Of a stretch of 64,000 nt of DNA, positions 4,701 to 56,924 are shown piece by piece. Source of the stretch: an uncultured bacterium. Its GTDB lineage: Bacteria > Patescibacteriota > Minisyncoccia > Phycocordibacterales > UBA9973. Made by a program: the position numbers and the translations under genes. Below the pieces are notes generated by a model that saw only the letters and a program-made list of their open reading frames with translations, had not been told where the DNA came from and searched no databases. How positions within the stretch are numbered: position 1 is the stretch's first letter; each line of letters begins with the position of its first letter. The stretch is from positions 1,844 to 65,843 of the forward strand of contig CAIMAO010000002.1 of NCBI GenBank assembly GCA_903838985.1, written 5' to 3'.

Positions 4701-4705
4701 TTAAG

Positions 4706-8212: not shown

Positions 8213-8216
8213 AATT

Positions 8217-8651: not shown

Positions 8652-8742
8652 AAATTAGTTTCTAGGCGCTCGTGACTAGATTCTAGTTAATTATAATATA
8701 TATTTACTCTAGAAACTAGAAACTAAAACTATTTTGAACTTC

Positions 8743-9384
8743 TTATTCTATAGGCATTCTGTATGGATCTACTTTTGGTAGTTTTGTTTTAGCGTCTTCT
8801 GTACTTTTTGTCATATTTCCAAGTGAATGATCTGTTTCTTTTGTTGTCGCCTGGAAAGAACCACCAAGTTTTTGGGACAAAATAGAAGGTGTTTCTTTAT
8901 TCATTGTTTGTATTGGTGTTGGGTTTTCTATTTTATTTAACAAGTTTTCCCTATTTTCAATAATTTCTCTATCTTTTACAGGAGCTTCTATTTTACTTTC
9001 ATCTTTTGGTTTTCTATTTTCAATAATTTTTACAAGCTCTTCACGAATTCTTTTGAAAACTTTTTCATTCATATCATTTACCAATTCATCAATTTTATTT
9101 TTAGGCATACCCAATCTTTTTTCTAACTCTTTTGGATATTCTTCTGGATTAATAAGCCCACAAAGCAGTAGTTCTGTTTCTGTTTCTAAGTCTTCTAGTT
9201 GCTCGTAGCTATATCCTTTTTCTGTTCGCATTCCCAAGATAGTTGATTTCCAATCAACAGCATCAATAGCCCTCCTACTATCTTCTGGAAGTTCCGCTTT
9301 AGCCTTTTCTATTTTTATTTGTAATAAATCTACGGTTGTATTCATAATATTTTTATATAACAAACTTATTTTTAATGTCTTCAA
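8743..9384 (-). CDS. Hypothetical acidic protein (paralog of 9353..9853)
   Basis: 213 aa ORF. The probable start is the internal Met MNTTVD... near 9345. Shares a motif pattern with the neighbouring ORF: AI..W..I ... ETxLLLxGL ... EYxK. Confidence 0.45.
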   Translation of the reverse strand: MKTLKISLLYKNIMNTTVDLLQIKIEKAKAELPEDSRRAIDAVDWKSTILGMRTEKGYSYEQLEDLETETELLLCGLINPEEYPKELEKRLGMPKNKIDELVNDMNEKVFKRIREELVKIIENRKPKDESKIEAPVKDREIIENRENLLNKIENPTPIQTMNKETPSILSQKLGGSFQATTKETDHSLGNMTKSTEDAKTKLPKVDPYRMPIE

Positions 9385-9853
9385 TTTTAGAATTATTATT
9401 TATAGTATTATCTTCTGTGTTCACAACATCGTCGTTAGAATCGTAACTTCTTTCAAGAAAAGCAGAATAATCGCCACCAGAGAGTATAAAATCAACTGTT
9501 TGTTCATAACCTATTTTTTTGTTTATTAGCTTATCTTCTGCTTGTTTTGATAATTGGTAATATATGGGATTAAAAATTTTCTGAGCAACAATTTTAGCAA
9601 TTTCTTCTGCTTCATTTTTGCCTACACCTACATTGTTTTCAATGTTTAAAACATAGGAATCTCCTTCTGTTAATCCTAATAACATTAGGGCTGTTTCTAG
9701 TTGGAAATCATTTAATTCATTATCAGTAAGTAAGTATTTTTTGCTAATTTCTTCTGTAATTTGTTCCCAACGAGAAGAATTAATTGCATCTTGTGATTCT
9801 TTTGGTAGATTTTTTATTTCCTCATTAAATTTTTGTTTTAATTTTTCAGTCAT
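9353..9853 (-). CDS. Hypothetical acidic protein (paralog of 8743..9384)
   Basis: 166 aa. Shows the same pattern: AINSSRWEQI...LETALMLLGLTEGDSY...KIFNPI. Confidence 0.45.
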   Translation of the reverse strand: MTEKLKQKFNEEIKNLPKESQDAINSSRWEQITEEISKKYLLTDNELNDFQLETALMLLGLTEGDSYVLNIENNVGVGKNEAEEIAKIVAQKIFNPIYYQLSKQAEDKLINKKIGYEQTVDFILSGGDYSAFLERSYDSNDDVVNTEDNTINNNSKIEDIKNKFVI

Positions 9854-9858
9854 ATTTT

Positions 9859-12525: not shown

Positions 12526-12550
12526 TTTCTACTTTACAACTCGCCTCGGA

Positions 12551-17024: not shown

Positions 17025-17069
17025 TTTACTTTAAGAACTTTAAAACTTTTTTACTCTTGTATTATATCA

Positions 17070-17999
17070 CTATTTTGTTAAAGCTGTCTCTAAATCTCCC
17101 ACTGCTGCTACTAAGTCATTACTATATTTTTGATATTGAGAAATACCAGAGAGTCCTACGACAGGATCATCCATAACTTTTTCCATATTTGAAACGCTTA
17201 TGCCTGTGTTGTTGGAACTATTTGCTATCCGTAAATGATAATCTGCCAATCCTTCTGGGACTTTAACATCTGTAATTATTTTTTTAGCAAAATCTTGATA
17301 TGCATTCGCTATAGCTATTAATTTAGCTGAAGAATTAGGATTATTTGCAGAATCTAAAGTAATTTTGTTACTGATGATATCCAACTCGTCTCCTATCCCA
17401 GCTGTTTGATAAGTTTTGAATATTTTTTTTATAGTATTGTAATATGCTTGTCTAGAAACAGCAGTGTCATTGTTGTCTAACTTTATATCTGAAGCTGTGT
17501 AACGATCAAGTAAGTTTGGGTTTGCTACTTTTTCACCCAAGGCACTTGAAAAACTATTTATGGCATTTTTGTCAACTTGTCCAGAAGATTTCATTGCACT
17601 GTAACTGACGAAGAACTCTCTAGCAAACTTGTCAGTTTCTGTCAGATTTTTATCATTTGCTGTTACACTTTCGTCTATATTTAATTCTTTCTTTCTGTTT
17701 TCTATATAGGTGGCATCAGGTGTATTGTTGAAAGTTATTTTTTTGTTTTTGTCTGTTCCCCAGAGGTCTTCTTCCCAATCAGGTATGCCGTCTCCATCAG
17801 AATCTTTTTGAATTAAGTCTGTGACAGATTGATTTGCTACTTTTAATGGAACAAGATTTTTTTTATTTGTTGTACTAAATATTTCTCCCCCTGAAGACAT
17901 AAAAAATATGACAAATATAATTACTCCCAAAACAACAAGAACGCTTAAGATTATTAAGAATTTTTTTGTTGGTAAATATTTTGAATATTTTTCTTTCAT
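17070..17999 (-). CDS. Membrane-anchored protein with thrombospondin-type-3-like Ca-binding motif
   Basis: 309 aa, N-terminal TM helix. Contains the motif DSDGDGIPDWEEDLWGTD. Confidence 0.45.
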   Translation of the reverse strand: MKEKYSKYLPTKKFLIILSVLVVLGVIIFVIFFMSSGGEIFSTTNKKNLVPLKVANQSVTDLIQKDSDGDGIPDWEEDLWGTDKNKKITFNNTPDATYIENRKKELNIDESVTANDKNLTETDKFAREFFVSYSAMKSSGQVDKNAINSFSSALGEKVANPNLLDRYTASDIKLDNNDTAVSRQAYYNTIKKIFKTYQTAGIGDELDIISNKITLDSANNPNSSAKLIAIANAYQDFAKKIITDVKVPEGLADYHLRIANSSNNTGISVSNMEKVMDDPVVGLSGISQYQKYSNDLVAAVGDLETALTK

Positions 18000-18011
18000 G
18001 ATTTTATATTT

Positions 18012-18410
18012 TTATTTTGAAGTTCCAAAAAGGGTTATTGTATTTAGGGAAACAGTAGCATAAGTAGGTGGGTTCCCTGGACGAACACAGTTTATAATTG
18101 TTCTTCCGGTGTATTTACCTAAAATTGATTTACCTGTTGTTGGAGTAGTTCTTGTTTTTGATACTACCGCCCAAGGTATAAAATAACTAGTTGGTGTTCC
18201 GGTAGGAGAACCCAAAGGGATTATTGTGATAGATTTACCTAAAACAGTACATTTGTATCCAGCCCATTCTTTTATTTCTATTTCCATTGCTTTGTCACTA
18301 ATTATTTTTCCACCAAAAAAGCCTCCGATAGAAGAAGCAGCAAAAACTATTCTAGTACCAACAAATACCAAAAAAATAATTAGCAGAATAAAAATTGTGC
18401 CTTTTTTCAC
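18012..18410 (-). CDS. Small exported protein, first gene of the cluster (possible pilin-like subunit)
   Basis: 132 aa with an N-terminal hydrophobic segment. Confidence 0.4.
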   Translation of the reverse strand: MKKGTIFILLIIFLVFVGTRIVFAASSIGGFFGGKIISDKAMEIEIKEWAGYKCTVLGKSITIIPLGSPTGTPTSYFIPWAVVSKTRTTPTTGKSILGKYTGRTIINCVRPGNPPTYATVSLNTITLFGTSK

Positions 18411-28351: not shown

Positions 28352-29422
28352 TTGTCTGGGGCGTTTTTTGCGCCTCTGACCACCAACGCTAGTTTCTTGT
28401 CTTCTATCCTAGGGACGGATGCATCGGCAAGTAATGTCGACTCTCTAAACTCTACTCAATCTCTTAAAAACTCTCAAAACATGGCACTCCTGCAAGCAGA
28501 CGTTTCCCCTATTTCTGCCTCAGATGATAAAAGTAAAGATGGTGATGTTAGTGATGATTCCGACATTAATATTTTATCTGAAAACGCTCTTCTCCCTTCT
28601 ACTAGTCATAAGAGTGTTGGAGATGATACTGATGCTGGAGACTCCTATTCTGATCAAATAAGTGTTTATGTGATAAGAAAAGGCGACTCCATTACACAAA
28701 TAGCTGATATGTTTGGTGTTTCTACAAAAACAATTCTAGCAGCTAACAATATGAAAAAGGGTGACAAGCTTGTAGAGGGCAATGTGCTCTTTATTTTGCC
28801 TGTTTCTGGTCTAGAACATACCATAACCAAAGGACAAACCTTGAAAAGTATAGCTAAAATATACAAAATAGATGCCATAGATATAGCTCAATTTAACGGC
28901 ATTACTGAAGATACAAAGCTTGTTGTTGGAGATAAAATATTGATTCCAGGTGCTGATATGATAGATGAAGGTGGTGATAAACCAGCTTCAAACTTAAGTA
29001 GTGCTGCGGCTAAAGATAAAAACTATTACGATACACACAAAGTTAGAAGTCTCTCTGGTTACTTTATAAATCCAGTTCCTACTGGTCGCAAGACTCAAGG
29101 TTTGCATGGTCCAGGACATCGTGGTATAGATATCGGAGCACCGACAGGCACACCTATTTATGCTTCTGCTGGTGGAACGGTTATTCTTGCAAACACAGGC
29201 TGGAGTGGAGGTTATGGAAATATGGCTATAATCCAGCACGCAAATGGTACAAAGACACTCTATGGTCATATGTCTAAACTTGCTACATACACAGGAGATA
29301 CTGTTAAACAAGGTGAAGTAATAGGTTATGTGGGTTCTACAGGCCATTCCACCGGGCCACACTTACACTTTGAAGTATTCAATGCTAAAAACCCAGGCTC
29401 TGATTGGTCTTGGGCAAACTAA
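28352..29422 (+). CDS. LysM-domain M23 family metallopeptidase (peptidoglycan endopeptidase)
   Basis: Two LysM repeats (YVIRKGDSITQIADMFGVS..., HTITKGQTLKSIAKIYKID...). M23 motifs HRGIDIGAPTGTPIYA and GHSTGPHLHFEV. Confidence 0.85.
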   Translation: MSGAFFAPLTTNASFLSSILGTDASASNVDSLNSTQSLKNSQNMALLQADVSPISASDDKSKDGDVSDDSDINILSENALLPSTSHKSVGDDTDAGDSYSDQISVYVIRKGDSITQIADMFGVSTKTILAANNMKKGDKLVEGNVLFILPVSGLEHTITKGQTLKSIAKIYKIDAIDIAQFNGITEDTKLVVGDKILIPGADMIDEGGDKPASNLSSAAAKDKNYYDTHKVRSLSGYFINPVPTGRKTQGLHGPGHRGIDIGAPTGTPIYASAGGTVILANTGWSGGYGNMAIIQHANGTKTLYGHMSKLATYTGDTVKQGEVIGYVGSTGHSTGPHLHFEVFNAKNPGSDWSWAN

Positions 29423-29429
29423 AAAAACA

Positions 29430-29508
29430 AAAAGCACAAAATTTTTCGTCCTGCGCCCTTCCCGGATTACCGGGTGGGACCCTCGGACAGAAAAAATTTT
29501 GTGCTTTT
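29430..29508. repeat. GC-rich palindromic element (family 1) nested in an 18-bp inverted repeat; probable terminator hairpin after the M23 peptidase gene
   Basis: Flanks aaaagcacaaaatttttc / gaaaaaattttgtgctttt. Core gtcctgcgcccttcccggattaccgggtgggaccctcggaca. Confidence 0.8.
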
Positions 29509-29708
29509 TGTTTATAATTTTCTCCTAAAAACTAGAGCTTAGTTAAATAAAAGAGAGCACGACCTTGACTTATGTCTATCAAGGAAAGGAGAGAGATTTG
29601 TACTCTCTCCTATTTATACCAAGAATAACTCTTGATAATTTTTAAGCTCTAGTTTTTAAAAGAAAATAATTTCTCGCAATAGCCCAACAAAATTAATTTT
29701 GTTGGGCT

Positions 29709-29773
29709 AACAACGAGGTCAAACAGATTTTATTTGTTTGACCAGTATTTATGTTAACCCTAACCCGTTGTGC
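29709..29773. repeat. 65-bp structured direct repeat, copy 1 (3' of cassette 1)
   Basis: Identical to 31057..31121. Predicted fold: outer stem caacgagg/cccgttg enclosing hairpin tcaaacag-attttatt-tgtttga. Confidence 0.85.
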
Positions 29774-29990
29774 TTTCTCAGCGTGGAGGCTCTGCTTCCT
29801 CTTGGCTCACCATTTTAAAGAAAATGGTGACAAACTTTTTACCCGTCCTTTTATTCCTATGGATTTTTAGGAAACATTTTTCACCAGATGTGAAAAATGA
29901 ATGTACTGTTGCGGTGTTCCGCTTTTGTCTGGAGAGGTAAACAGTTTTACCTCGAGGTTTTACACCCAGACTGCACCCATCTCTCCTTAA

Positions 29991-30323
29991 TTACCCTAAG
30001 GTAACTAAGAGCCACTTGATAGTGGCACCTTCTGGTAAGGTCGAACAACCTTCCGGAAGGCGAGGCCCGACATACTGGCCTACAAGAGCTTTGTCATCTT
30101 TTTTAAGGACGACATTTACTCTGTTTGCCGGCACGTCTACTCCCAAGACATTACTGAACACATTAGCTGTGTCAGCATGTCCGACTGCTGACATAGCGTC
30201 AGTAGCGAGAGTCTTAGCCTGCTCTAAAGAGATTTCCTCAACATGAATATCTATCGGAAAGACAGAAATCATATTGAGGGAGATCGCGTTCAAAATAAAC
30301 ATGAACGTTTTCTCCTCTAGCAA
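29991..30323 (-). CDS. Hypothetical protein in GC-rich cassette 1 (110 aa)
   Basis: ORF with ~45% GC against a ~33% background. ...ISLEQAKTLATDAMSAVGHADTANVFSNVLGVDVPANRVNVVLKKDDKALVGQYVGPRLPEG... It may resemble the DUF1874/STIV-B116-like family, but this is unverified. Confidence 0.5.
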   Translation of the reverse strand: MLEEKTFMFILNAISLNMISVFPIDIHVEEISLEQAKTLATDAMSAVGHADTANVFSNVLGVDVPANRVNVVLKKDDKALVGQYVGPRLPEGCSTLPEGATIKWLLVTLG

Positions 30324-30484
30324 CTACTATCTCCTCAACTTCCTCGCAGTCACACTACGATTTATATGAGTATTTAAGTTACTAGCTCTGTTGATTTTAA
30401 AGGTTGATCAACTAACCGCTTCCAACTCACTTGAGTCAGAAGTATATCCCGCAGAAACCACTGCGTTGCTAGGGTTTTTAATTT

Positions 30485-30856
30485 TTAGTCTGTGTAACGA
30501 TTAATTCTGATCATTACATCATCTGGCATATCAGCCAGTTTAATTTCCGCGCGGAATCCCCTTGGGTCGCTATAAAAGGAAGATAAAATAATTTTTTCCC
30601 CTAAAGAATATAAAATTAAATATTCTTTATTTTCCAACACCTGAGATTCTACTTTTCCTCCTTCTCCCGTATAAAAAAAAGAGAAATCTTTGCAATACTT
30701 TATTTGTATTGTAAACATAGTATCTAATTCCCACATTTTTTTTTCATGGAATTCTTTCCATGAAATATCCAAAGGGAGGTTTTTAAAACCAAGACCAAAT
30801 CTTTTCAGATTTGTCTCGAAATCGAAAGCATCCATTAATTTTTGGAATATACTCAT
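30485..30856 (-). CDS. Hypothetical protein in cassette 1 (123 aa)
   Basis: ORF preceded (on the minus strand) by a strong SD ggtgaggagg and by the shared leader repeat. Confidence 0.45.
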   Translation of the reverse strand: MSIFQKLMDAFDFETNLKRFGLGFKNLPLDISWKEFHEKKMWELDTMFTIQIKYCKDFSFFYTGEGGKVESQVLENKEYLILYSLGEKIILSSFYSDPRGFRAEIKLADMPDDVMIRINRYTD

Positions 30857-30900
30857 TTTTTCCTCCTCACCATTTTACGTCCGTGAGGTAGACATTTGTT

Positions 30901-31010
30901 TTTTATGATTAGTCAGTTGTTTAAAAGTAGTTAAATAACCACACTTAAACAACTAACCAACCACAAGTAAAAAATGAAATTTACTCTCTTCTATTTAATT
31001 TTCAAAAAAC
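30901..31010 (-). promoter_or_regulatory. Shared ~110-bp 5' leader/promoter repeat, copy 1 (upstream of 30485..30856)
   Basis: About 85% identical to 34631..34746 (ttttatgat...gtttaaaagtagttaRaataaccacRcttaaacaactaaccaac...aatgaaRttt..ctct.ttc.atttaattttcaaaaaac). Both copies sit 27–44 bp upstream of a minus-strand start codon with a GGAGG-type SD. Confidence 0.6.
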
Positions 31011-31056
31011 TCGCAATGAATTTTCCATTTAATTAACCCAATCAAATGAAAAACTC

Positions 31057-31121
31057 AACAACGAGGTCAAACAGATTTTATTTGTTTGACCAGTATTTAT
31101 GTTAACCCTAACCCGTTGTGC
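31057..31121. repeat. 65-bp structured direct repeat, copy 2 (3' of cassette 2)
   Basis: Identical to 29709..29773. Confidence 0.85.
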
Positions 31122-31467
31122 CTTACGGCAGATGAGGACACAAAATTTTTATTGTAATTTTATGTTTATCCTCACGCCAAATAAATTTGACTTCCTCTTT
31201 GTTTTATCGGTAGGCATCCGACTAGTTATAAGGTCACAATCCACTTATGTAAACTCTCGGTCTACTTCTGCTAAAAGCCTAACACTCACACCTTGTCACC
31301 AACCGTATGGTATTGTGAGATGGTACATTTGTGTATTTTATGTCTATAATGTTTTCCTTACGGACGAAAAAGAATTATAGACCACGTGCACAACCAGAGA
31401 CCTCCTTATTTTTTTGATAATAATTCAATTATGGGTCTGGTAGCCCAAAAATTGTCGTTAATTAATT

Positions 31468-32841
31468 TTAGAGTTTGTTTACACCAACTCCGCCCGTACT
31501 GATCGCAAGATCAGTCAGAACTTTATTTGTACACTCAACTACAAAGGCATGCATTTTTGTACCTGTAAAATCCTTCATAGTTAAGTTTATTTTATCGTCC
31601 CCATCAGTAATAATAACGAGCTCGGGACGATAGGTGGAACCTGCTTTTATTATTTCTTCGATCCTTTGTTGCGCCAGCTTCGCGCATCCCGAGATATCTG
31701 TACTTCCACCTGAATAGTTTTTCTCGGTAAAGTGCTTGATTAACTCCTTAGCTTCAGTTGGGGTAGAGGAGTGATGTTCCTCCTTCAATGTAGTATCGAA
31801 GAGCCTTACATAAAGCTCAGCCTCTCCCTCAATCACCGCTTTTAAACGATTTATGAGGATTCCACCAGCCTTAAATATTCTCTGGCCAGATCCCATTGAT
31901 CCGGAGCAGTCTATAATAATATAAAGGAGCTGCTTCTTTTCAATGGTCGTCACTCTCTCTCTTACCATACTAGAATGAGTGACAATTCTGTATGTCCGAT
32001 AAGTGCTCGGTAGCGCCCATTCGGATTTTATCAACTTATTCATTTCGCCCGTGTGCGCTATTGGGCGGTTCCGGACACTATCACCGGCCGGATCCGGTTC
32101 TTGTTTTTTACTCTTACGCACTTGCATGCGCGTAAGTTTATCTAGATTTCTTGAAATCTGGAGCATAATCTCCTTACCTTTCAAAAAATCTTCCGCAAGT
32201 TTCATTTTTTGGAGACCGTCATCTCCTTTTCCTTCACTCGCTCCCGAACCAGTGTCCTGGTCAGGATCAAGCAGTTGTTTTTCATCTTTGGATAAAGAAT
32301 CAACTTCATCCATAAGATTATTCAGCTGCTCGCCGACTTTTTCTGACTGATCATTGTCGGTAAATATTGGTAACGGCTCTCCGGCCTCTCCACCACCTTG
32401 TCCACCTTGCTTTTTTGACAAAAGTTTCAGTAGACTCATGGCTTGTTCAAGTGGAGAACTACCAGGGAAACAATTAAGATCAATTGTCTGCAAAAAATCG
32501 CAAACGTTTTGATGATACCTCATCTGTTCCCGAGTTCTACCTTCGATTGCTTCAAACCGACTCTTGGTTGATACTTCAGTCTTTGATTTTTTATCGCGAC
32601 GGAGGTATTTCCAATTACCGGAAGTGTCGGCAGCAGGTAAAGTTTCCTCAACATTTTTCCTTACAACTTGTTGATAGGATGATGGAGGATTTACCTGACC
32701 GCCAGCAGCCAAATTACATAAGTCCGCGACTAAGTCCCTTGAAAAGGATTTAACGCCAACCTTATCTCCAACTTCCCGCATTTCTTCCGCACTAGGCGAA
32801 AGATAAGTTACGGGAGGAGAAGTTCGAAATGTAAATTGCAT
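31468..32841 (-). CDS. VWA-domain protein, CoxE-like (von Willebrand factor A with MIDAS motif)
   Basis: 457 aa. C-terminal VWA with ...LLYIIIDCSGSMGSGQ... (DxSxS MIDAS) and ...VIITDGDD.... The N-terminal ~250 aa is charged/low complexity, as in CoxE-family partners of MoxR ATPases. GC-rich. Confidence 0.75.
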   Translation of the reverse strand: MQFTFRTSPPVTYLSPSAEEMREVGDKVGVKSFSRDLVADLCNLAAGGQVNPPSSYQQVVRKNVEETLPAADTSGNWKYLRRDKKSKTEVSTKSRFEAIEGRTREQMRYHQNVCDFLQTIDLNCFPGSSPLEQAMSLLKLLSKKQGGQGGGEAGEPLPIFTDNDQSEKVGEQLNNLMDEVDSLSKDEKQLLDPDQDTGSGASEGKGDDGLQKMKLAEDFLKGKEIMLQISRNLDKLTRMQVRKSKKQEPDPAGDSVRNRPIAHTGEMNKLIKSEWALPSTYRTYRIVTHSSMVRERVTTIEKKQLLYIIIDCSGSMGSGQRIFKAGGILINRLKAVIEGEAELYVRLFDTTLKEEHHSSTPTEAKELIKHFTEKNYSGGSTDISGCAKLAQQRIEEIIKAGSTYRPELVIITDGDDKINLTMKDFTGTKMHAFVVECTNKVLTDLAISTGGVGVNKL

Positions 32842-32864
32842 GTGTTTTCTCCTTCTCGCGATTT

Positions 32865-33938
32865 TTATATGCGGGTATTTTCAAGTGCCAGTTTTTGAGT
32901 CTCGGAGGTTTTCTCCGAAACTGTGTCTCTTAATTTTTTACGACGGTCAGACAAACCGTCGGTTACTTTTAGTGATGAAATTTCATCATTAAGAGCTACT
33001 AATTTTTTTGCCACTTGTAATAATTTGATTGGAGATGTTGCGTTTACTCTTGACTCATTTAATAACTCGCCGAATTTTGTCTCGGCAAGAGAAAGATTTT
33101 TTTCAGCAGCAGCTCTCTCCATCGCAGTCTCAAGGTCTTTGCTGATTGTTTCTGCAAGACCTTCAAGTCCAGGCAGAAACCGTAAATCAGTAAGGTCCTG
33201 TTTCTCTACTTTTTCACCACCACGCAGTGTAGCGGCAGTTTGACAGATCTGAAAGGAATGGACTGCTGTACGAGGGCTCACAAAATTGCCCTCAGCAGTT
33301 GCTTTTGCTAAAATCTCTGCGAGAACGGCCTTAAAGCCGTTAAGAATCGGACCGTTTAACCGACCGGCGACTTTTTCAAACATCTTCAAATAAGAGGACG
33401 CTGAATAATCTTTCCATTTCAAGTTTAATTGAAGCGGAAAGCGCTCAATAAGAGCATGTGCCGCTGGGCCTAAACCAGAAATTTCCTGAGGTTCTTTATT
33501 TGTTAAGCAAATTATTAGCTCGGTTCTCATTTTAAATCTCTGCGAACCGTTTCTTAATTCCTTAGCAGTCAAAACGTCTTTTAGAGCTAGAAGCACCGAC
33601 GCCGGAGCATCAAATAATTCTTCGAATACTGCTATCCGAGAATTTAAAAAAGATTTCTCTGGATAGTATTCAAGAATTTTATCTTCCTCTAATTTTTTGA
33701 AGTTCAATCCTCCGAAGAGACGGCTTTCATCCATCCCTTCACCAAAAAATTGGTAGAAGGTATCAGAATCGAGATTCAAACCATCAATAACTGCCTTTGT
33801 CATCTCAGATTTGGCGTGTCCGCCCGGTCCGAAGATGATAATGTTTTTTTTACTTGTGAAAGCAAGTGCAAAAATACGCACTACCTCGTCGACAAACACA
33901 AACGAGGTTTCAAGAATATTTTTAATTTTCTCTAACAT
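32865..33938 (-). CDS. MoxR-like AAA+ ATPase (CoxD-like)
   Basis: 357 aa. Walker A IIIFGPGGHAKSE. Divergent Walker B and sensor region ...IAVFEELFDAPASVLLALKDVLTAKE.... ...ELIICLTNKEPQE...ALIERF..., aligning with the MoxR ...LATQNP...LDRF... region. Adjacent to the VWA gene. Confidence 0.75.
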   Translation of the reverse strand: MLEKIKNILETSFVFVDEVVRIFALAFTSKKNIIIFGPGGHAKSEMTKAVIDGLNLDSDTFYQFFGEGMDESRLFGGLNFKKLEEDKILEYYPEKSFLNSRIAVFEELFDAPASVLLALKDVLTAKELRNGSQRFKMRTELIICLTNKEPQEISGLGPAAHALIERFPLQLNLKWKDYSASSYLKMFEKVAGRLNGPILNGFKAVLAEILAKATAEGNFVSPRTAVHSFQICQTAATLRGGEKVEKQDLTDLRFLPGLEGLAETISKDLETAMERAAAEKNLSLAETKFGELLNESRVNATSPIKLLQVAKKLVALNDEISSLKVTDGLSDRRKKLRDTVSEKTSETQKLALENTRI

Positions 33939-34135
33939 TTTTACTCCTGCCCATTTAACGCCGGGACCAGCAATTGATTTGAGTTTGAGCGCTTTATTTC
34001 CGCTTCATTAAGGGCGGCAATAAACCTGGCACTCCTCGCTGTCTTGTTGGTAGCGAATAACCCAGGAGTCATGTGTGCTTACTCACACATGTCCTGAAAA
34101 TGATTTTCATTTTTGTGTTGAGTAAGCAACATTTT

Positions 34136-34603
34136 TTACCAGGGACAAGTCTCAGTTTCGGTGCCTGGTATCACCGGTTCGCTACCCCAAATGAGTGCGT
34201 GTTCACTCCAAAACTTTCTGGAGTTTTGGGTAGCTTTCCGATCCCAGGGCTCTGGTTCAGCCAATTCGCCAATGAAGGCGGTAACCAAAATAAAAGTCCC
34301 GGGCTGTTCATCAGCAGTCTTCAGAATGACTACCACCGACGAGCTTGGTTCGGGTTGGCGATTTTTAACAAATCGCGTTAATCCAAACCGTTTGGGCCGT
34401 TGTGCAAATACAATTACATCGTCAGGCCCAGTGACGACACAAGTTGATTCACCTATGATTCGGTCAAACCTGACTTCCTCAACGATGAAAGTTCTTCCTT
34501 TTGAATTAATTTTTTCTAGCGCCTCGGGAAGAACGTCGAGGACACTAGCATGAAGATGTGATTGATAACGATCAACCACATCTTCACCACTTTTTAGCTT
34601 CAT
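34136..34603 (-). CDS. Hypothetical protein, first gene of the MoxR-VWA cassette (155 aa)
   Basis: GC-rich ORF with SD aaggaga. Preceded by leader repeat copy 2. No family recognised. Confidence 0.5.
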   Translation of the reverse strand: MKLKSGEDVVDRYQSHLHASVLDVLPEALEKINSKGRTFIVEEVRFDRIIGESTCVVTGPDDVIVFAQRPKRFGLTRFVKNRQPEPSSSVVVILKTADEQPGTFILVTAFIGELAEPEPWDRKATQNSRKFWSEHALIWGSEPVIPGTETETCPW

Positions 34604-34630
34604 TTTTCTCCTTTCTCCACTTCTGTGGAG

Positions 34631-34746
34631 TTTTATGATGAAAGTTGGTTAGTTATTTAAAAGTAGTTAGAATAACCACGCTTAAACAACTAACCAACTA
34701 TATTATTTGGAAATAATGAATTTTTTCTATTCAATTTTCAAAAAAC
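34631..34746 (-). promoter_or_regulatory. Shared 5' leader/promoter repeat, copy 2 (upstream of 34136..34603)
   Basis: See 30901..31010. Confidence 0.6.
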
Positions 34747-35349
34747 ATATCCTTACTACAAAACAGGCCTCTCTCCTTTTTGTACTTTCATTGTTTTCTC
34801 CTTTTAAAACAATGAACTCCTTCGTAAAGACATTTCAGATCACAAAAGTGGGTTAAGCTCTTATGGTCTGCCTATGTCTTTGCCATTCTTTATTACCCTG
34901 TACTAAGTTTTTAATTTAGTAGTGGTGAATGACTCTTACACGGTTGTGAATTTATCTGTGTTTTTGGTTTCGGTTTGCGGCTTTCACCAAAATCCACAAT
35001 TCACGGTGCAAACAGATTTCAAAAGATTGTCTCTCATCCCACTCCCTCCTTTTTCCTAGCTTACCGGCCTAGGTGCCGCCTCATCGATTATTCAGGATTT
35101 ACCCTGAGCGTAGTCGAAGGGTCAGAGGTGGGTATCAATCTTCTGCTATCTCCTTTAATGAACCTTGCCCGTTCTCTCTTGAGGCGGGTCTTAACTTATC
35201 TGCAAATAGTATAGCATAATAGAAATGTTTTGTCAATGAAACAGAAAAGAAAGTTTGTAAAGGCTAAAAAAGCCTTATTTATCAATATAAAATAGTTATC
35301 CACTTTGTCATATTTGTGTGGCAAAAGCATTCATGTTAAGATTGTTAAT

Positions 35350-36117
35350 ATGAATGAAGAAAACATTTTAATCCAAGCGGGTCTTTCAGAGGAGCAATCC
35401 TTGGCTTATCAATCTTTATTGGATAAAGGGCCTCAAAGGGCTAGTGATCTTGCAAAATGGACTGGGATAAAACGTGGGCTTATCTATAAAGTATTAGAAC
35501 AATTAGAATCTATGGGTTTGGTGTCTAAAAATGGTGGTGTGGGAACTGTGGCCATCTTCTCCCCCGCCCATCCTAGTCTTTTACTTTCAAATATAGAACG
35601 TAAGGAAAAAGAGATTGCTTTGACTAAAGAAATGCTTGTAAGCTCCATTGGTTCTTTGTCTTCAAAATTTAATTTGATTACTGGCAAACCCAATGTGCAG
35701 TTTTTTGAAGGAGAAGAAGGAGTTAAGAAAGTATTAGATGATACATTAAATGTTCCTAAGTATACAGAGATATACACTTATGCTGATCTTGAAGCTATTT
35801 TGAAATATATTCCAAATATAAACCAGGTGTATTCAGATCGTAGAGAAAAATTAGGCATAAAGAAAAAAGGGCTACTTTTAGATAGTCCTAAGGTGCGTGA
35901 ATTGATAAAAAGCTATCACACCGAGACTACGGATACAAAATTGATACAATATAATGTTTCAGAATTTGAAACGATAATGCAGATTTATGAGAATAAGATT
36001 TCTTATATAACTCTGAAAGAAAACTCGATGATTGGAGTAATTATTGAAGACCCATTTATTTATAAGATGCACAAAAATATTTTTGAGCATCTTTGGAATA
36101 TTACTCCTTCTCTTTAA
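35350..36117 (+). CDS. TrmB-family transcriptional regulator
   Basis: ORF 35305..36117. The likely start is MNEENIL at 35350. N-terminal winged HTH ...LSEEQSLAYQSLLDKGPQRASDLAKWTGIKRGLIYKVLEQLESMGLV... is typical of TrmB. Confidence 0.6.
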   Translation: MNEENILIQAGLSEEQSLAYQSLLDKGPQRASDLAKWTGIKRGLIYKVLEQLESMGLVSKNGGVGTVAIFSPAHPSLLLSNIERKEKEIALTKEMLVSSIGSLSSKFNLITGKPNVQFFEGEEGVKKVLDDTLNVPKYTEIYTYADLEAILKYIPNINQVYSDRREKLGIKKKGLLLDSPKVRELIKSYHTETTDTKLIQYNVSEFETIMQIYENKISYITLKENSMIGVIIEDPFIYKMHKNIFEHLWNITPSL

Positions 36118-39104
36118 ATATTTTTTTCAAAAACAGAAAACCACATCTTTTCTTTTTTATCAAAGAAATATCTAGTTAAAACATAATTTTCTGGGATACC
36201 TTTTGTTATTAATTCTTCTTGTGAATTTCCATTATGTATTAAGATATTTTCCGTATTTTCTTTTTGTAAAAATTTATTTATTATTTCTTCTTTAGATAAA
36301 TCTTTTGATGCCCAATGTTTTTTAGGATCACTCTCTAATGACAAGCTTGGTTCTCCTGCAAATTCGTATGATTTATCTGCCACAAAACCAGATTCTATAT
36401 AATAAGATGCTATTGGTTGACGGCTTGAACAATCAGCGTGCACAATCTGTCTTTTCATTAATGGTTCTATTGTCACTTGGAAGAAGGCTGTTCCAATTTT
36501 TGAGTTACAATAGATCGGATCAACATTAAATGATCCAAAATATGCGGAACCATCTTGTTTATAATCTACTCTATCAAAGGCTATAATTTTTTGGCCTTTT
36601 TTAAGAAACATAAAATCTGTCTCGGTGTATCCAGTATCAATTTTTTCTTGCCAAGATTTAAGGACAGCTTGTCTCAATTTTTCTTCAGGATAATTTTGTT
36701 CTATTATTTTGCGCATCTCTGAGATTTCCTCTTTTGTAACTTGATCTGATGAATAAGAATGGTTCATCTTGAGATCTATAAAGTTTTCAAAACCTAAGTC
36801 TGGGTTTTCTTTTTTGGCTATTTTAAATAAATTTTTAAATAAATCTACATCAGCTTTTGTGTTTTCCAAAGATTCTAAGAATTTTTCTTGCGAGAATTCT
36901 CCTTTTTCTACTTCTTCATTTTGTTTAATTAAAAGATCCCTTCCTCTTATTAAAAGATTTTCCTTTATTTTATTTATAAGTTCTGGGGATGGTGGTAATT
37001 TATAAGTTTTGTTTATTAATTCTTCAACATCATTAACAGCATCAATATATTCCCCGTATTTTGCAAATATAATTTTTGCTGTGTCTTCAGGTAATTTTTC
37101 TCCCAATTCTAAAATTTTATCTCCCATTTCGTTATTACCAGACATGGACAAGAAAGATCTGAGAAAAGTATTATTTTCTTCACTATTATTTTTTTTGAGG
37201 ATGATCTCTAATTTTTCGAAAGTTTCTTTACTGGAGGTAGATAAAAATTTTAGGAAGTATATCTGTTCTTTTAAAAAAAGATCTTCTGTTTTTATGTTTA
37301 ATCTATCATTTATGTAATTTTTTATTTCTGGCGTGTGTAAAATTTTTATTAGATGAGAAAAATCATCATTTCCAAATGGATTGAACTCTTTTTCTGTAGT
37401 GAAGCCGTCATAATTTTTTATGGGTAGGGTGTTTTTTCTAGAGCTATCTATCTCTATTATTTCTTTTATTACAGATTTAAGATTTTTAATAGATATTTTT
37501 TTAACAATTTCTATTACTTCTAATATCTTATCATTGTATTCTTTGTAATATGGTTCATTCAATTCATAAGTTTTCTGTTTTTCTGATTCCCAATTTTTAA
37601 TGTGAAAATTTTTGAGCTTACCTGCCATAATTTTAATTCTTTGTATTGGGGTAAGACTTTCTTCTTTTTCCCCTTCTGCACTTTCTTTTTTTAGAGAGAA
37701 AGAAGTATAGTCTTTTATGTCCATTGCCAACTGGCTCATTATTTTAAAAAGGCCATCATTATATTTTTCTTTTTTATAAGTTAGCCACTCTTCACCAAGA
37801 TATTTTTGTTTTTCTATAAAAATATTATCAAAATTTTTATCTATATAATCAAAAATTTCCTTAGTTTTGTTGTAATTTTCTTGTTCTATTTTTGTTGTGA
37901 CATAATTTTCGTTTGTTTTAATTTTTTCTTCTATTTTATATAACCCCTGTATGTTTTCTTTGAGTTTAGTTAAATTTTCTTTTTCTAAAACAGAATTCAA
38001 ACTAACTTCTTCTGGTTTTATGTTATCTAAATAATCAACAATATTACCGACATTGTTGTAAAAATGAGGGCTGTTTTTATTTTCGGAGTTATTTAGATAT
38101 TCAAGAGAAGAATTTAGCTTTTTTATTTCTTCGAAAGGTAAATTATTTTCTTTTGTAACCCTTTTTTCTTTTTGTTTTGGCTTTTTTATTAATGCAATAG
38201 GTATGAGATTTTCTTTCAAAACAATATTTTCATAATCTTTTGAAACGTTTGTATAGTAAATATTTTCTAATTGTGGAATAATTATGTTTTCCTTAGAAAA
38301 GGAATCATTTTCTAAAGAAATTTTTAACCTTACATCTTCTTCATCGTTATAAATATTTTCTTCTTCATAATCTTCAATTGAATCAATTTCTTCAAAGTTA
38401 TTAAGATTATTAGAAAAATTTATTATTTTTTTTAATTCAAAATCAGCTACGAAAGAAACAATTGGTATTTTTTCCTCATCTCTTACTTTTTGTATAAAAT
38501 TTATTGTGTCTTTAAACGCAACGTGTGCCCAAGATCCATCACCATAAGACCTTATCGCCACATTGGATAATGTTTTTATAACACTAATTTTTTTTGATTC
38601 TGATAATGTTTTTATTTTTTCAGCGATTTTCCCCAAACCATCTTTAGAATTAAAAGACAAATCATAAGCAATTTCTCCGGACATATCTGCTACATTTCTT
38701 AATTTATATGTTTCGTTTATTTCAGAAGAAAGTATTAATTTTTGTATATAATCAATATTTATATTTTCAAATATGTTTGGAGATTTATTAAAAAAAGTTT
38801 CATATAAATTTTCATAAAACTTTTGAACCTTTTCTTTATTATAGTTTTTATCAAAAATAATATTTTTACAAAAAGAAGTAAGTTTTTCTCCAAAAATGAT
38901 TGTTAAGTCTTTCATTTCTGGTGTTATATATCTTCCACTTCCGGTTAAAGAGCCTATTTTTACTTCTACTGAATCAAGAAAAGTACTCTCGTAATCATTT
39001 TTGTAAAAGCTTTGGATAAAATTTTCAACCCAAATAGTAAATTTCTTTTTAGTTTTTTCAAAATCTTCTTTTTTATTTTCTTTCGGTCCTTGGTCAAATT
39101 TCAT
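36114..39104 (-). CDS. Very large K/E/N-rich hypothetical protein (996 aa)
   Basis: Long low-complexity ORF. The C-terminal ~200 aa are more globular (...GSAYFGSFNVDPIYCNSKIGTAFFQVTIEPL...). No family assigned. Confidence 0.5.
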   Translation of the reverse strand: MKFDQGPKENKKEDFEKTKKKFTIWVENFIQSFYKNDYESTFLDSVEVKIGSLTGSGRYITPEMKDLTIIFGEKLTSFCKNIIFDKNYNKEKVQKFYENLYETFFNKSPNIFENINIDYIQKLILSSEINETYKLRNVADMSGEIAYDLSFNSKDGLGKIAEKIKTLSESKKISVIKTLSNVAIRSYGDGSWAHVAFKDTINFIQKVRDEEKIPIVSFVADFELKKIINFSNNLNNFEEIDSIEDYEEENIYNDEEDVRLKISLENDSFSKENIIIPQLENIYYTNVSKDYENIVLKENLIPIALIKKPKQKEKRVTKENNLPFEEIKKLNSSLEYLNNSENKNSPHFYNNVGNIVDYLDNIKPEEVSLNSVLEKENLTKLKENIQGLYKIEEKIKTNENYVTTKIEQENYNKTKEIFDYIDKNFDNIFIEKQKYLGEEWLTYKKEKYNDGLFKIMSQLAMDIKDYTSFSLKKESAEGEKEESLTPIQRIKIMAGKLKNFHIKNWESEKQKTYELNEPYYKEYNDKILEVIEIVKKISIKNLKSVIKEIIEIDSSRKNTLPIKNYDGFTTEKEFNPFGNDDFSHLIKILHTPEIKNYINDRLNIKTEDLFLKEQIYFLKFLSTSSKETFEKLEIILKKNNSEENNTFLRSFLSMSGNNEMGDKILELGEKLPEDTAKIIFAKYGEYIDAVNDVEELINKTYKLPPSPELINKIKENLLIRGRDLLIKQNEEVEKGEFSQEKFLESLENTKADVDLFKNLFKIAKKENPDLGFENFIDLKMNHSYSSDQVTKEEISEMRKIIEQNYPEEKLRQAVLKSWQEKIDTGYTETDFMFLKKGQKIIAFDRVDYKQDGSAYFGSFNVDPIYCNSKIGTAFFQVTIEPLMKRQIVHADCSSRQPIASYYIESGFVADKSYEFAGEPSLSLESDPKKHWASKDLSKEEIINKFLQKENTENILIHNGNSQEELITKGIPENYVLTRYFFDKKEKMWFSVFEKNI

Positions 39105-39965: not shown

Positions 39966-40036
39966 TCGGGCTGCTGGGAATCGAACCCAGTCTAAACGCT
40001 CCCAAAGCGCTTGTACTACCGGTATACTACAGCCCG
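39966..40036 (-). tRNA. tRNA-Pro (anticodon UGG)
   Basis: Acceptor cgggctg/cagcccg, anticodon loop tttggga, T-arm ctggg-ttcgatt-cccag. Confidence 0.8.
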
Positions 40037-40073: not shown

Positions 40074-40128
40074 AAGTCTAAACGCTCTCACCATGAAGGC
40101 GCTTGTACTACCGGTATACTACAGCCCG
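40074..40128 (-). pseudogene. Truncated duplicate of tRNA-Pro (5' half through anticodon stem; no T-arm)
   Basis: Matches the tRNA-Pro 5' half exactly (cgggctgtagtataccggtagtacaagcgc). The anticodon loop is replaced by cttcatggtga and there is no T-arm or acceptor 3' strand. Confidence 0.55.
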
Positions 40129-40154: not shown

Positions 40155-40565
40155 TTACAAAATAAGATCTTCCACAACTTTTATTTTTGCTTTCTTGTTT
40201 TTTATATCTAAAAACACAACCAATAAATCGACTTGCCATTCTTTATCCTCAGGGACGTTTTTATTTAAAAGATAGGTTTGTATTGTCCGTGACATTCTTT
40301 TCATTTTCCAAGGATGCATATTATCTTCAGGTTTGTAATTATCTAGGGTTTCATGTGTAACGTTAGCTAAAGTTTCACGAGAAACACTCTTAACTTCAAT
40401 AAAATATAGCTTATTTCCCTTTTCAGCTACAATATCTAGTTCTCCCCATTTTCTAGTGTAATTTCGTTCTATAATAACGAAATTGTGTTTCACGAGAAAC
40501 TTTATGGCTATATTTTCCCCAATTTCCCCTATTTTTTGTGTTTCTGAGGTAAAAACCTTAGGCAT
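40155..40565 (-). CDS. yraN: YraN-family (UPF0102) predicted endonuclease
   Basis: 136 aa. ...GEIGENIAIKFL...IIERNYTRKWGELDIVA...YFIEVKS... matches the YraN pattern. Confidence 0.7.
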   Translation of the reverse strand: MPKVFTSETQKIGEIGENIAIKFLVKHNFVIIERNYTRKWGELDIVAEKGNKLYFIEVKSVSRETLANVTHETLDNYKPEDNMHPWKMKRMSRTIQTYLLNKNVPEDKEWQVDLLVVFLDIKNKKAKIKVVEDLIL

Positions 40566-40593
40566 AATCTATGTTTTTGTTTATTTTGTAAAT

Positions 40594-40623
40594 GTTTCAT
40601 AAGAAACGTGTTTCACGTGAAAC
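40594..40623. promoter_or_regulatory. Tandem palindromes gtttcataagaaac / gtttcacgtgaaac upstream of yraN (candidate operator)
   Basis: Three further copies of gtttcacgagaaac lie at 40372, 40487 and 41352. The function is unknown. Confidence 0.3.
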
Positions 40624-40836
40624 AAATAGCTTAATTTTATGTCTTTTATTAAAATATCCTTATTTTACAACGTATTTTATATAAAAATGGCCTTAAAGAC
40701 AAAATTTTATTGTGTCCTTTATAAACATTACCAACATAGTTATCCACATTTATCCACAAAATCCTTATAAATAAAGATGAAATTAAAAACAAATAAAGGA
40801 CAATTATAGTTTTGTCTTAGATCTTTCTTTTTTGTG

Positions 40837-40908
40837 TGCACCCGGAGGGATTCGAACCCCCAACAACTGCTTCGAAGGCAGGTATGATATCCATTTCACT
40901 ACGGGTGC
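40837..40908 (-). tRNA. tRNA-Arg (anticodon UCG)
   Basis: Acceptor gcacccg/cgggtgc, anticodon loop cttcgaa (the stem has one C·U mismatch), T-arm ggggg-ttcgaat-ccctc. Confidence 0.7.
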
Positions 40909-41022
40909 AAGGATATTAATTATACTCCTATAAATACTAATTATCAAAATTGCAATATTTTTTATAAAATACTATAATTGAAATGTTATCGGCAATTAGG
41001 TCATTTTTATAAAAATAATACT

Positions 41023-41093
41023 GCGGTTATGGTTTAGTGGTAGAACACGTCCTTGCCAAGGATGAGACGGGAGTTCGATTCTCCCTAGCCGCA
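41023..41093 (+). tRNA. tRNA-Gly (anticodon GCC)
   Basis: gcggttatggtttagtggtagaacacgtccttgccaaggatgagacgggagttcgattctccctagccgca. Anticodon loop ttgccaa. Confidence 0.85.
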
Positions 41094-41100
41094 CAGAATA

Positions 41101-42698
41101 TAGTGAATCTAATAGAAGAGAAAAACTTAATAAACAAGATTCCAAAAGAAGTTTCATTTGTAACGGACACGCTTGAAAAGGGTGGTTTTGAGGCATACCT
41201 TGTAGGTGGTTGCGTGCGTGATTTACTAATGGACAGGGAACCAAAAGATTGGGACATAACAACTAATGCGAAACCAGATCAGATTATCGGACTTTTTGAA
41301 AAAACTGTTTATGAGAATGATTTTGGCACTGTAATGGTTATTCAAGAAGATGTTTCACGAGAAACATTACGTCAAATAGAGGTTACGCCATATAGAGTTG
41401 AAGCAAAATATACTGATTTTAGACATCCTGATGAAATAAAGTTCAGTGATAATATAGAAGATGATCTTAAGAGACGTGATTTTACCATAAACGCCTTGGC
41501 TCTAAATTCTAAAGGACATATGATAGACATGTTTGATGGCTTAAAGGACATTAAAGACAAGATGTTAAAAGCAGTAGGGGAACCAGATGATCGTTTTCAA
41601 GAGGATGCACTTAGAATGTTGCGCGCTGTGCGTATTGCTTTACAACTTGGTTTTTCTGTGTCTTATGAAAGTAGTGAAAGTATTTTAAAAAATTCTGATT
41701 TGATAAAAAAAATATCACCAGAAAGAATTCGTGACGAATTTTCAAAAATAATAATGTCTGCGAATCCATCTGTCGGAATTGTAATGTTGCAAAAATTTGG
41801 TTTATTAAAAAATATAATTCCTGAGCTTGAAGAGGGAATTGATTGTGAACAATCGGGTGAACATATTTATGATGTTTGGAATCATTTACTACATGCACTG
41901 CAACATGCTGCTGACAAAGATTGGTCATTTGAAGTAAGAATAGCAGCGTTATTTCATGATATTGGAAAACCTAGATCTAGGAGGGCTGCAGAAAAAACTT
42001 CGCCTGATACTTTTTCTCAGGTCCTCGGGTCGCCCGCACAAAATTCTAAAAAAGAGCGGGCTCAACCAGACCATTCGCAAAAGTATACAGGCGAAGTTTT
42101 TTTGAAAAAGAAATACACATTCTATGGGCATGAAGTGATAGGAGAGAGAATGACAAAAAAAATATTGGAGCGTTTAAAATTTTCCAAAAAAGAAACAGAA
42201 TTAATTTTAAAACTTATTCGCAATCATATGTTTTTCTCTGACACAGAACTTATAACTCTTTCTGCCGTGCGAAGAATCATTGCGAAAGTTGGAGCAGAAA
42301 ATATTTGGTTGTTAATGAATGTTCGTGAGTGTGACAGAGTAGGTATGAAGAAGAAAGAAGCACCATATCGTTTGCGTAAATATTTTGCAATGATAGAAGA
42401 AGCCTTGCACGACCCCATATCTGTCGGACAGCTTAAGATTGATGGAGAATTTATGATAAAAAATCTTGGTATAAAGCCAGGCCCTAGAATGGGATGGATT
42501 TTGCACGCATTGCTTGAAGAAGTTCTCGATGATTCAAGTAAAAATACAGAAGAGCATCTTTCAGAATTAGTGAAATCACTCAATATGCTCGGAGATGAAG
42601 AGTTGAGAACATTGGGTGAAAGAGGGAAAGAAAAAAAGGAAGAATTAGAAGAGCAAGAAGTAGAAAAATTACATTCTAAACATGGAGTTAGGAAATAA
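41101..42698 (+). CDS. cca: CCA-adding tRNA nucleotidyltransferase (polyA polymerase family with HD domain)
   Basis: NTase motif LVGGCVRDLLM...DWDI, HD domain ...LFHDIGK.... The ORF as listed (41037) would overlap the tRNA-Gly, so the real start is probably the GTG near 41101 or further downstream. Contains an in-frame GC-rich element. Confidence 0.8.
41994..42112. repeat. GC-rich palindromic element (family 3) inserted in-frame in cca, flanked by a ~20-bp locus-specific inverted repeat
   Basis: Flanks acttcgcctgatactttttctc / gcaaaagtatacaggcgaagttttt. Core aggtcctcgggtcgcccgc...gggctcaaccagacc is the reverse complement of the pcrA copies. Encodes ...FSQVLGSPAQNSKKERAQPDHSQ... Confidence 0.8.
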
Positions 42699-56357: not shown

Positions 56358-56924
56358 ATGAAAAATATTTATCAAACAAAAATAGAAAATTTTTACTCAA
56401 AAAATAAAAGGATGCCGAGTTATTCTGAAATGATGGAACTCTTTGGTTTCAAATCTAAAAATGCGATTTTTAAAATTGTTAATAAACTTATTGAAGCAGG
56501 GGTAGTGGCAAAAGATCATTTAGGAAGATTAGTTCCTACAGAATCTTTTGGAGAAATACCAATGCTTGGTTTTGTGACGGCTGGGCTACCAGCTACTGTG
56601 GAAGAAGAGATGACTGACACTGTTAACTTAGATGATTTTTTAATTGGTAAAAAAGAATACACATATATGTTGGAAGTTGACGGAGATTCTATGATAGATG
56701 CACATATAGAGCGTGGGGATATGGTGCTCGTAGAGAAAGCCAATCAAGCGAAAGATATGCAGATAGTCATTGCTGAAATAGATGGAGAATTTACAATGAA
56801 ATATTTCCGCAAGGTTGGGAATAAATCTTGGCTCGAACCTGCTAATAAAAACTATAAACCAATTTATCCTACACAAAGCTTGAATGTCATAGCTGTGCTT
56901 AAAGCTGTAGTGAGGAAATACTAA
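56358..56924 (+). CDS. lexA: LexA repressor
   Basis: 188 aa. N-terminal wHTH. C-terminal S24 peptidase with ...GDSMIDAHIERGDMVLVEK... and the catalytic Ser/Lys context. Confidence 0.8.
   Translation: MKNIYQTKIENFYSKNKRMPSYSEMMELFGFKSKNAIFKIVNKLIEAGVVAKDHLGRLVPTESFGEIPMLGFVTAGLPATVEEEMTDTVNLDDFLIGKKEYTYMLEVDGDSMIDAHIERGDMVLVEKANQAKDMQIVIAEIDGEFTMKYFRKVGNKSWLEPANKNYKPIYPTQSLNVIAVLKAVVRKY

Follow-up and report, generated by a model that had tools for sequence, protein, structure and literature searches.

The question raised by this 64-kb window of DNA (the whole stretch that was analysed) is why a short palindrome of the form GTTTCNNNNGAAAC should occur five times within 1 kb, around and inside the genes yraN and cca, and nowhere else. 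Its five matches start at positions 40372, 40487, 40594, 40610, and 41352, all within 40372-41365, as the first-pass annotation of this DNA had reported. Dinucleotide-preserving shuffles of the window contained a mean of 0.06 matches (maximum 1), which bears out the earlier statement that such repetition is not expected by chance. Our analysis leads us to conclude that the five palindromes are very probably chromosomal parS sites, i.e., centromere-like loading sites for ParB, in the genome of an uncultivated, ultra-small member of the Patescibacteria (Nomurabacteria/Paceibacteria-type). Neither the agreement with the parS consensus nor the fact that the peptide VSRET, encoded by some of the copies, is a translation of that consensus had been noticed in the first-pass annotation.

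Three of the five palindromes are the identical 14-mer GTTTCACGAGAAAC, and two variant copies with the spacers ATAA and ACGT follow one another in the stretch 29-58 bp ahead of the yraN start codon, in agreement with the placement just upstream of yraN given for them previously. When extended by one base on each side, the ACGT copy becomes a perfect 16-bp palindrome, TGTTTCACGTGAAACA, at 40609-40624, from which the three exact copies differ by 1-2 mismatches; read as 16-mers, the ATAA and ACGT variants abut (40593-40608, then 40609-40624). The flanks of the copies are unrelated, and the repeated unit is the 14-16-bp word alone. More specifically, the 16-mer at 40609-40624 is identical to TGTTTCAC-GTGAAACA, the ParB loading site that was used as the parS consensus by Jalal et al. 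2020, and it fits the pattern TGTT(N)CACGTGAAACA, with three further sites lying 1-2 mismatches away. This consensus, with minor variants, is tabulated for Bacillus, Caulobacter, Hyphomonas, Burkholderia, and others, and chromosomal parS sites usually number 2-22 and lie in the origin domain (PMC7333895, PMC7022226). The sites described here are likewise few, clustered, and close to the origin (see below), with no copies elsewhere in the window or in the flanking loci L006-L008.

The core site (40609-40624, 0 mismatches) lies in the spacer between yraN and the tRNA genes, 44 bp upstream of the yraN start, and the same slot is filled in 80 relatives. A degenerate parS-like site, TGTTTCATAAGAAACG (40593-40608, 4 mismatches), directly adjoins it. 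Two to three sites are embedded in yraN itself (40155-40565, minus strand; UPF0102 family, 136 amino acids; PF02021, E=2.8e-16), in which two exact copies are read in frames that differ from each other: TGTTTCACGAGAAACT (40486-40501, 2 mismatches) occupies codons 22-27 and reads K-F-L-V-K-H, that is, the xFHVKx frame with His replaced by Leu, while AGTTTCACGAGAAACA (40371-40386, 2 mismatches) reads V-S-R-E-T in codons 61-65, where a stretch of variable sequence begins. Within the same gene lies a sixth, degenerate parS-derived module, GGTTTCATGTGTAACG (40347-40362, 4 mismatches), read as V-T-H-E-T; relatives have better sites in its slot, e.g., loci L009 and L012 at +204. The remaining site, TGTTTCACGAGAAACA (41351-41366, 1 mismatch), is located in cca (41103-42698, plus strand; CCA-adding enzyme/poly(A) polymerase family with an HD domain; PF01743/PF12627/HD), where it is read as V-S-R-E-T in a hairpin-loop insertion at Cca residues 84-88. 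These domain matches uphold the names first given to both genes. The accompanying claim that the motif encodes VSRET in both proteins holds for the copy at 40372 and for the cca copy, and fails for the other yraN copy, which reads K-F-L-V-K-H. Of the three frames of a perfect parS, one contains a TGA stop and the other two read xVSRET and xFHVKx; it is because of these two stop-free frames that VSRET appears in two unrelated proteins and KFLVKH in the other yraN copy.

To place these sites in an evolutionary context, we assembled 80 loci from 80 species (Nomurabacteria/Paceibacteria) by a profile search of genome contigs with a YraN alignment, with at most 10 kb of flanking sequence on either side (1.26 Mb altogether). 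At up to 2 mismatches, each of the 235 matches to the site began in the interval from -2.25 to +0.25 kb relative to the yraN start. Allowing up to 3 mismatches gave 424 matches within the 2.8-kb cca-tRNA-yraN zone versus 18 outside it, corresponding to a 120-fold higher density inside. Most species carry 2-5 sites, distributed over four slots: the spacer upstream of yraN, yraN codons 22-27, the variable stretch after yraN codon 60, and cca. For the intergenic slot, the position weight matrix derived from the 80 species equals the parS consensus at 16 of 16 positions, and 18 sites are perfect.

This distribution bears on the idea that the copies are a mobile or self-propagating palindromic micro-repeat, similar to miniature inverted-repeat transposable elements or repetitive extragenic palindromic elements, which sits in tolerant loops and has no host function. 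Copy number does differ between species, and in relatives the same loops hold unrelated GC-rich hairpin micro-insertions. Against this, none of the 235 close matches lies outside the zone, the position of the intergenic copy is kept in 80 species, a slot that is not an insertion (yraN codons 22-27) is held by synonymous codon choice, and the copies have neither shared flanks nor target duplications, so that we regard the explanation as very unlikely. The confinement of the word to the zone likewise speaks against the earlier proposals of a restriction-modification site or a dispersed micro-repeat, and the proposal of a recombinase site found no sequence match to a Xer/dif-type site.

Selection on the DNA itself is evident within yraN. 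Among 84 sequences, Lys22 is encoded by AAG in 93% at the site versus 25% elsewhere in the gene, Leu24 by CTC in 74% versus 6%, Val25 by GTG in 98% versus 18%, and Lys26 by AAA in 100% versus 75%. Thus, the synonymous codons of positions 22-26 are fixed to the DNA word. The T at site position 7 in this slot is due to the Leu codon. We also searched for the pentapeptide irrespective of its codons, as V[SPTAI][RQHCK]ET, and found 220 occurrences in the zone versus 3 in the 1.06 Mb outside; within the zone, Val was GTT in 212 of the 220 and Glu was GAA in all but one (219/220). These data bear on the notion that selection in both proteins acted on VSRET as a peptide, e.g., as a site of modification or interaction, and that the DNA likeness is a by-product of this protein-level motif. 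The occurrence of the same pentapeptide in two proteins would fit it. However, the best copy is non-coding, the second yraN copy is in another frame, the codons are fixed (GTT 96%, GAA 99.5%), the base before the Val codon is conserved, and the middle residue varies with the DNA centre, leaving this explanation with next to no probability. All of this is consistent with a non-random grouping of sites that are recognised by a putative DNA-binding protein and are under selection as DNA, and to that extent the first-pass interpretation is upheld.

How such sites are accommodated in proteins is clearest for Cca. Compared with the solved CCA-adding enzyme 6ibp, the Cca of the window has six extra residues, exactly VSRETL. 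The segment between the anchors GTV and EVT.[FY]R comprises 9 residues in 6ibp, 15 in the window, and 15-77 in 74 relatives, in which the added loop length consists of 1-5 V-x-x-E-T modules, each translated from a parS-like 16-mer in a single frame. An independent set of 119 Cca homologs contained at least one module in 119 of 119 loops. The base before the Val codon is T in 75 of 82 cca sites, and the middle residue of the module varies freely (R/Q/H/C), as does the DNA centre. In an alignment-based AlphaFold2 (AF2) model of Cca with a mean predicted local distance difference test (pLDDT) score of 78, residues 83-89 are unstructured and of low confidence, between strands 77-79 and 92-96; a single-sequence AF2 model of the head domain reached a pLDDT of 35 and was discarded in favour of the alignment-based one. 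A second variable, low-confidence insert, without any parS-like word and poorly aligned among homologs, is present in the HD domain (~41964-42131, Cca residues 288-343).

For YraN, the variable stretch between EVK and EDNMHPW spans 12-45 residues in relatives and holds 0-4 modules in a constant frame. The 120 closest homologs showed no indel at the two yraN sites, and YraN had no matches among solved structures; the reading of its VSRET as an insertion is based on the Pfam span (101 residues versus 79 profile positions) together with the length variation between species. Consequently, the small insertions proposed at the outset, for which an alignment of YraN and Cca orthologs had been named as the check, stand for Cca (VSRETL being extra relative to 6ibp, and its loop variable in the 74 relatives) and for the second yraN slot, and do not stand for the first yraN slot, which belongs to a conserved segment. 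In these two places, what has been inserted is the DNA site, and the peptide follows from it as a by-product. GC-rich hairpin palindromes that have no relation to parS are likewise present in-frame in the same two loops in relatives L009, L047, L075, L079, L053, L078, L049, L012, L021, L034, and others; examples are ACCTCACCCCAACCCTCTCCTTATAAAGGAGAGGGGG (TSPQPSPYKGEG), CTCCCCCTTAGCAAGGGGGAG (LILPLSKGE), and GCCCGCCAAAGCTTTAGCGTCGGCGGG (AKALASAG), and some occur outside the loops as well. The Cca and YraN loops therefore look like landing pads for short palindromic DNA.

The position of the sites relative to genes also bears on whether they could serve as operators through which a local transcription factor, be it TrmB-like, LexA-like, or of another type, acts on yraN, the tRNA genes, and cca. 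The sites are palindromic, two of them lie 29-58 bp upstream of the yraN start, and genes for a TrmB-like and a LexA-like (S24) protein are found 4.5 kb and 15 kb away, respectively. Nevertheless, the majority of copies are found 100-800 bp into coding sequence, and it is in a protein loop that they have multiplied. The TrmB gene is missing from the neighbourhood in three of the four relatives examined, and no regulator is conserved nearby. LexA normally autoregulates, yet the motif does not precede the LexA-like gene, and the 16-mer is identical to parS. We thus consider operators quite unlikely, and the original suggestion of a transcription-factor operator is not sustained. As regards an SOS operator, no copy was found upstream of the LexA-like gene (56358-56924), upstream of the UvrD gene, or anywhere in the window outside 40372-41365. 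The Cheo-type box is GAAC-N4-GTTC, from which GTTTC-N4-GAAAC differs.

The parS reading places the sites among well-characterised relatives. Bacillus subtilis (Spo0J, 10 sites), Caulobacter crescentus (a cluster of 5), and Hyphomonas neptunium (2 sites of TGTTTCACGTGAAACA) use the same 16-bp inverted-repeat consensus, and, as in those ParB-parS systems, the sites here are few per chromosome, clustered, and origin-proximal, some of them with 1-2 mismatches. Unlike in those systems, no parB stands beside the sites, the cognate ParB is putative, the sites are packed within 1 kb, and several of them lie in length-variable protein loops, multiplied as in-frame V-x-x-E-T modules. Some known parS sites do lie within genes, e.g., inside B. 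subtilis spo0J. A similarly small origin-proximal cluster is seen in Streptococcus pneumoniae (4 sites) and Staphylococcus aureus, in which ParB-parS operates without ParA, mainly for SMC loading; as in these ParA-less systems, no parA was seen near the sites here. Noc-binding sites (NBS; TATTTCCC-GGGAAATA) of Firmicutes are 16-bp palindromes of the same family read by a ParB paralog, and they differ at two positions per half-site from the sites here, which have the parS bases G2 and A7. In the intergenic slot of the 80 species, parS-specific G2 and A7, whose mirror bases in the other half-site are T10 and C15, were each present in 81 of 83 sites (NBS have A2/C7). Furthermore, NBS are scattered over the chromosome, whereas the sites here are clustered, and Noc is confined to Firmicutes (Jalal et al. 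2020). An assignment as a Noc-binding site (TATTTCCCGGGAAATA) was accordingly rejected: the specificity positions differ, the sites are clustered, and the host is a member of the Patescibacteria. The feature is strongly selected and very probably a known kind of element, an origin-proximal parS centromere, apparently undescribed for this lineage in the literature searched; what sets it apart is that flexible loops of two housekeeping proteins house the sites in-frame and that the sites have multiplied there. Our literature search on ParB/parS in Patescibacteria, the candidate phyla radiation (CPR), Parcubacteria, and Saccharibacteria returned nothing relevant (the partition genes in the TM7x paper are those of its host), and no description of parS multiplied in-frame in protein loops was found in the literature searched.

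Next to the core site, the 270-bp yraN-tRNA spacer (40566-40835, 78% AT) contains an origin-like element. It comprises four head-to-tail DnaA-box-like 9-mers on the plus strand (40719-40758), namely, TTATAAACA (40719), TTACCAACA (40728), and TTATCCACA (40740 and 40750), two of the four being perfect, which form a candidate oriC core, bracketed by a conserved inverted repeat, TGTCCTTTA (40713-40721) and TAAAGGACA (40794-40802). Besides the tRNAs, no Rfam family matched in the spacer, so that no structured RNA was recognised there. The DnaA-box array is kept in 77 species, with a box at offset -21 in 66, at -12 in 34, and at +10 in 11; a perfect DnaA box is present in 69 of the 80 species, and of the 72 perfect boxes, 70 point in the same direction. 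The heptamer AAAGACA at 40695-40701 is conserved as well, and in loci L013-L092 the array lies ~100-250 bp upstream of yraN.

Since raw GC skew in the window follows gene strand, we analysed the skew at third codon positions (GC3 skew) resolved by strand. Across the 80 species, the polarity of strand-resolved GC3 skew changes at the cluster, for genes on either strand and in all distance bins, as would be expected of an origin. In the window itself, third-position G (G3) is strongly enriched on the plus strand to the right of the cluster, and the skew is near neutral or reversed at 18-35 kb. The left edge of the window carries rpmH-rnpA-yidD-yidC-jag, with dnaA and dnaN just beyond (obtained by edge walking), and dnaA is ~41 kb from the palindrome cluster. 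In the dnaA-flanking spacers (L006 1485-1504 and 6-80), we found only degenerate boxes, none of them perfect: two occurrences of TTATCAACA precede dnaA/rpmH, and the dnaA-dnaN spacer holds four boxes. We somewhat favour an oriC directly beside the cluster over the alternative, an origin at dnaA, 41 kb away. The cluster, which abuts a conserved DnaA-box array at the strand-skew switch, is origin-proximal under either placement, as is typical of parS sites. With its three to four head-to-tail DnaA-box-like 9-mers at ~10-bp spacing in an AT-rich spacer, at a skew switch and ~41 kb from dnaA, the array resembles bacterial oriC arrays located away from dnaA. In E. coli, oriC lies roughly 40 kb from dnaA. 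Relative to most characterised origins, the candidate oriC here has fewer DnaA boxes and no defined unwinding element.

Several observations weigh against the parS reading and its origin context. First, the three exact copies have A rather than T at position 10 of the 16-mer, and two of them could be restored to the consensus by a synonymous change, yet have not been. Position 10 is the specificity position mirroring position 7, and because of the A there, the three copies are probably weaker sites; they depart from the parS-specific bases in one half-site only. Second, the skew of the window is ambiguous, as the plus strand is again G3-rich at 2-18 kb, in a block with genes resembling a type IV secretion system (T4SS). 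Third, no parB or parA was found in the window and its ±10-kb extensions (~84 kb; Pfam on 47 window open reading frames [ORFs] and gene lists from edge walking), or within ±10 kb of yraN in the 80 relatives (tblastn with Spo0J/Soj probes, and a ParB hidden Markov model at E<=10). Fourth, chromosomal parB is patchy in Paceibacteria, being present in 19-98% of species depending on the order, and in the GTDB order Paceibacterales it is present in only 26 of 135 species (19%) (PMC12704722, Dataset S1). Other orders are richer, with 274/280 species (98%) in UBA9973, 81/84 (96%) in Moranbacterales, and 118/132 (89%) in UBA6257 (PMC12704722). The tblastn ParB probe was validated on metagenome sequences, in which it hit all 121 ParB ORFs; these 121 genuine ParB ORFs had been collected with a codon-biased GERRxRA DNA pattern designed for AT-rich parB genes, and none could be assigned to the lineage by neighbour-gene identity or tetranucleotide similarity.

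The missing parB leads to the closest competitor of the ParB-based explanation, in which sites of parS sequence are read by a non-ParB protein, parB having been lost in the lineage as in most o__Paceibacterales; candidate readers are YraN itself or a divergent ParB-fold/HTH protein encoded elsewhere. It is consistent with the lack of parB and parA in ~84 kb here and in the 1.26 Mb around the cluster in the relatives, with the 19% figure for Paceibacterales (PMC12704722), and with the fact that the nuclease-like YraN is very conserved (the best 120 of 2,705 homologs are 75-87% identical and nearly all equal in length) and always adjoins the core site. On the other hand, an intergenic slot equal to the pan-bacterial parS at 16 of 16 positions in 80 species is hard to account for without a ParB-type helix-turn-helix; the lineage may belong to one of the other Paceibacteria orders, which are 89-98% ParB-positive; parB need not adjoin parS; and UPF0102 proteins are not known to bind DNA sequence-specifically. 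A non-ParB reader thus seems unlikely to us, and we hold to ParB with high, though not full, confidence because it is difficult to account for a 16/16 consensus match in 80 species by anything other than a ParB-type reader.

If the sites are indeed read by ParB, they would operate as follows. One canonical high-affinity site (40609-40624) in the yraN-tRNA spacer would be surrounded by four to five weaker sites within 1 kb. By analogy with known systems, ParB dimers would bind each 16-bp site via their helix-turn-helix domains (PMC7333895, PMC7022226), close into CTP-dependent clamps, slide onto nearby DNA, and build a partition complex. ParA would move this complex, and/or the complex would serve to load SMC at the origin region. 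Selection on the DNA keeps the sites inside genes, in Cca and the second YraN slot via the VSRET-type frame in length-variable loops, and in the first YraN slot via the FHVK-type frame in a conserved segment, where one mismatch is due to Leu (CTC) in place of His. Site number evolves by in-frame gain and loss of V-x-x-E-T modules in the loops. In its fullest form, i.e., a centromere written into Cca (1-5 modules) and YraN (0-4 modules), with a copy number that evolves by loop indels and with the whole array directly abutting a true oriC ~41 kb from dnaA, we give this model about an even chance.

The locus would thereby provide a concrete, testable centromere, and probably also an origin, for a large uncultivated lineage on whose chromosome biology the literature searched held nothing. 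The VSRET peptide would be a passenger of the DNA site, making this a clear case of a cis-acting element shaping protein sequence and even enlarging protein loops. Why parS sites cluster and why their number varies is an open question in the field (PMC7333895, PMC7022226), on which a site number that differs between species as modules are gained and lost in-frame, as here, has a bearing. Given the patchy occurrence of ParB in Paceibacteria, the conserved parS array may also serve as a marker of lineages in which a ParB-type system has been kept, and as a guide to places in which to look for a divergent reader protein.

With regard to the organism, YraN and Cca each belong to a set of hundreds of homologs that are 71-87% identical and are labelled Nomurabacteria, Paceibacterota, Parcubacteria, or Minisyncoccia (CPR/Patescibacteria), and metagenome contigs of up to 218 kb carry the locus. 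The conservation of YraN is unusually high for a small protein of unknown function, and the core parS always lies in its promoter region. The cluster includes two tRNA genes, tRNA-Arg(TCG) (40836-40908, minus strand) and tRNA-Gly(GCC) (41023-41094, plus strand). The listed ORF start of cca at 41037 overlaps tRNA-Gly, and the GTG at 41103 is the probable start. A tRNA-Pro gene on the minus strand has an exact duplicate of its 5' 30 nt (40007-40036 and 40099-40128), the second copy of which begins 62 nt ahead of the gene; an att-like scar or what is left of another tRNA would be possible origins.

Further to the left, the block at ~29400-39100, between zip and a LysM-M23 peptidase gene, contains VWA/MoxR-like genes, the TrmB-like regulator, and a 996-aa protein without Pfam match. 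It is missing from that place in relatives L009, L010, and L012 and largely replaced in L011, and is probably an insertion; its portion at 29423-31467 has no ORF of at least 130 aa and no Rfam match. The block at 1958-18410, which carries the T4SS-like genes (3351-8651; VirB4/TraG-like, PrgI, pilin/NlpC), is encoded entirely on the minus strand, and its GC3 skew is opposite to that expected for an origin at the cluster. This may mean that the segment was inverted or acquired, or that the origin is at dnaA. Among the relatives, cca, uvrD, and ksgA are each broken into several ORFs in L010 (7907-9363 and 12891-15762), most likely as a result of frameshift errors in a long-read assembly rather than biology, and an S-adenosylmethionine synthetase gene in L012 (1-1023) contains an intein with a LAGLIDADG endonuclease domain (Pfam).

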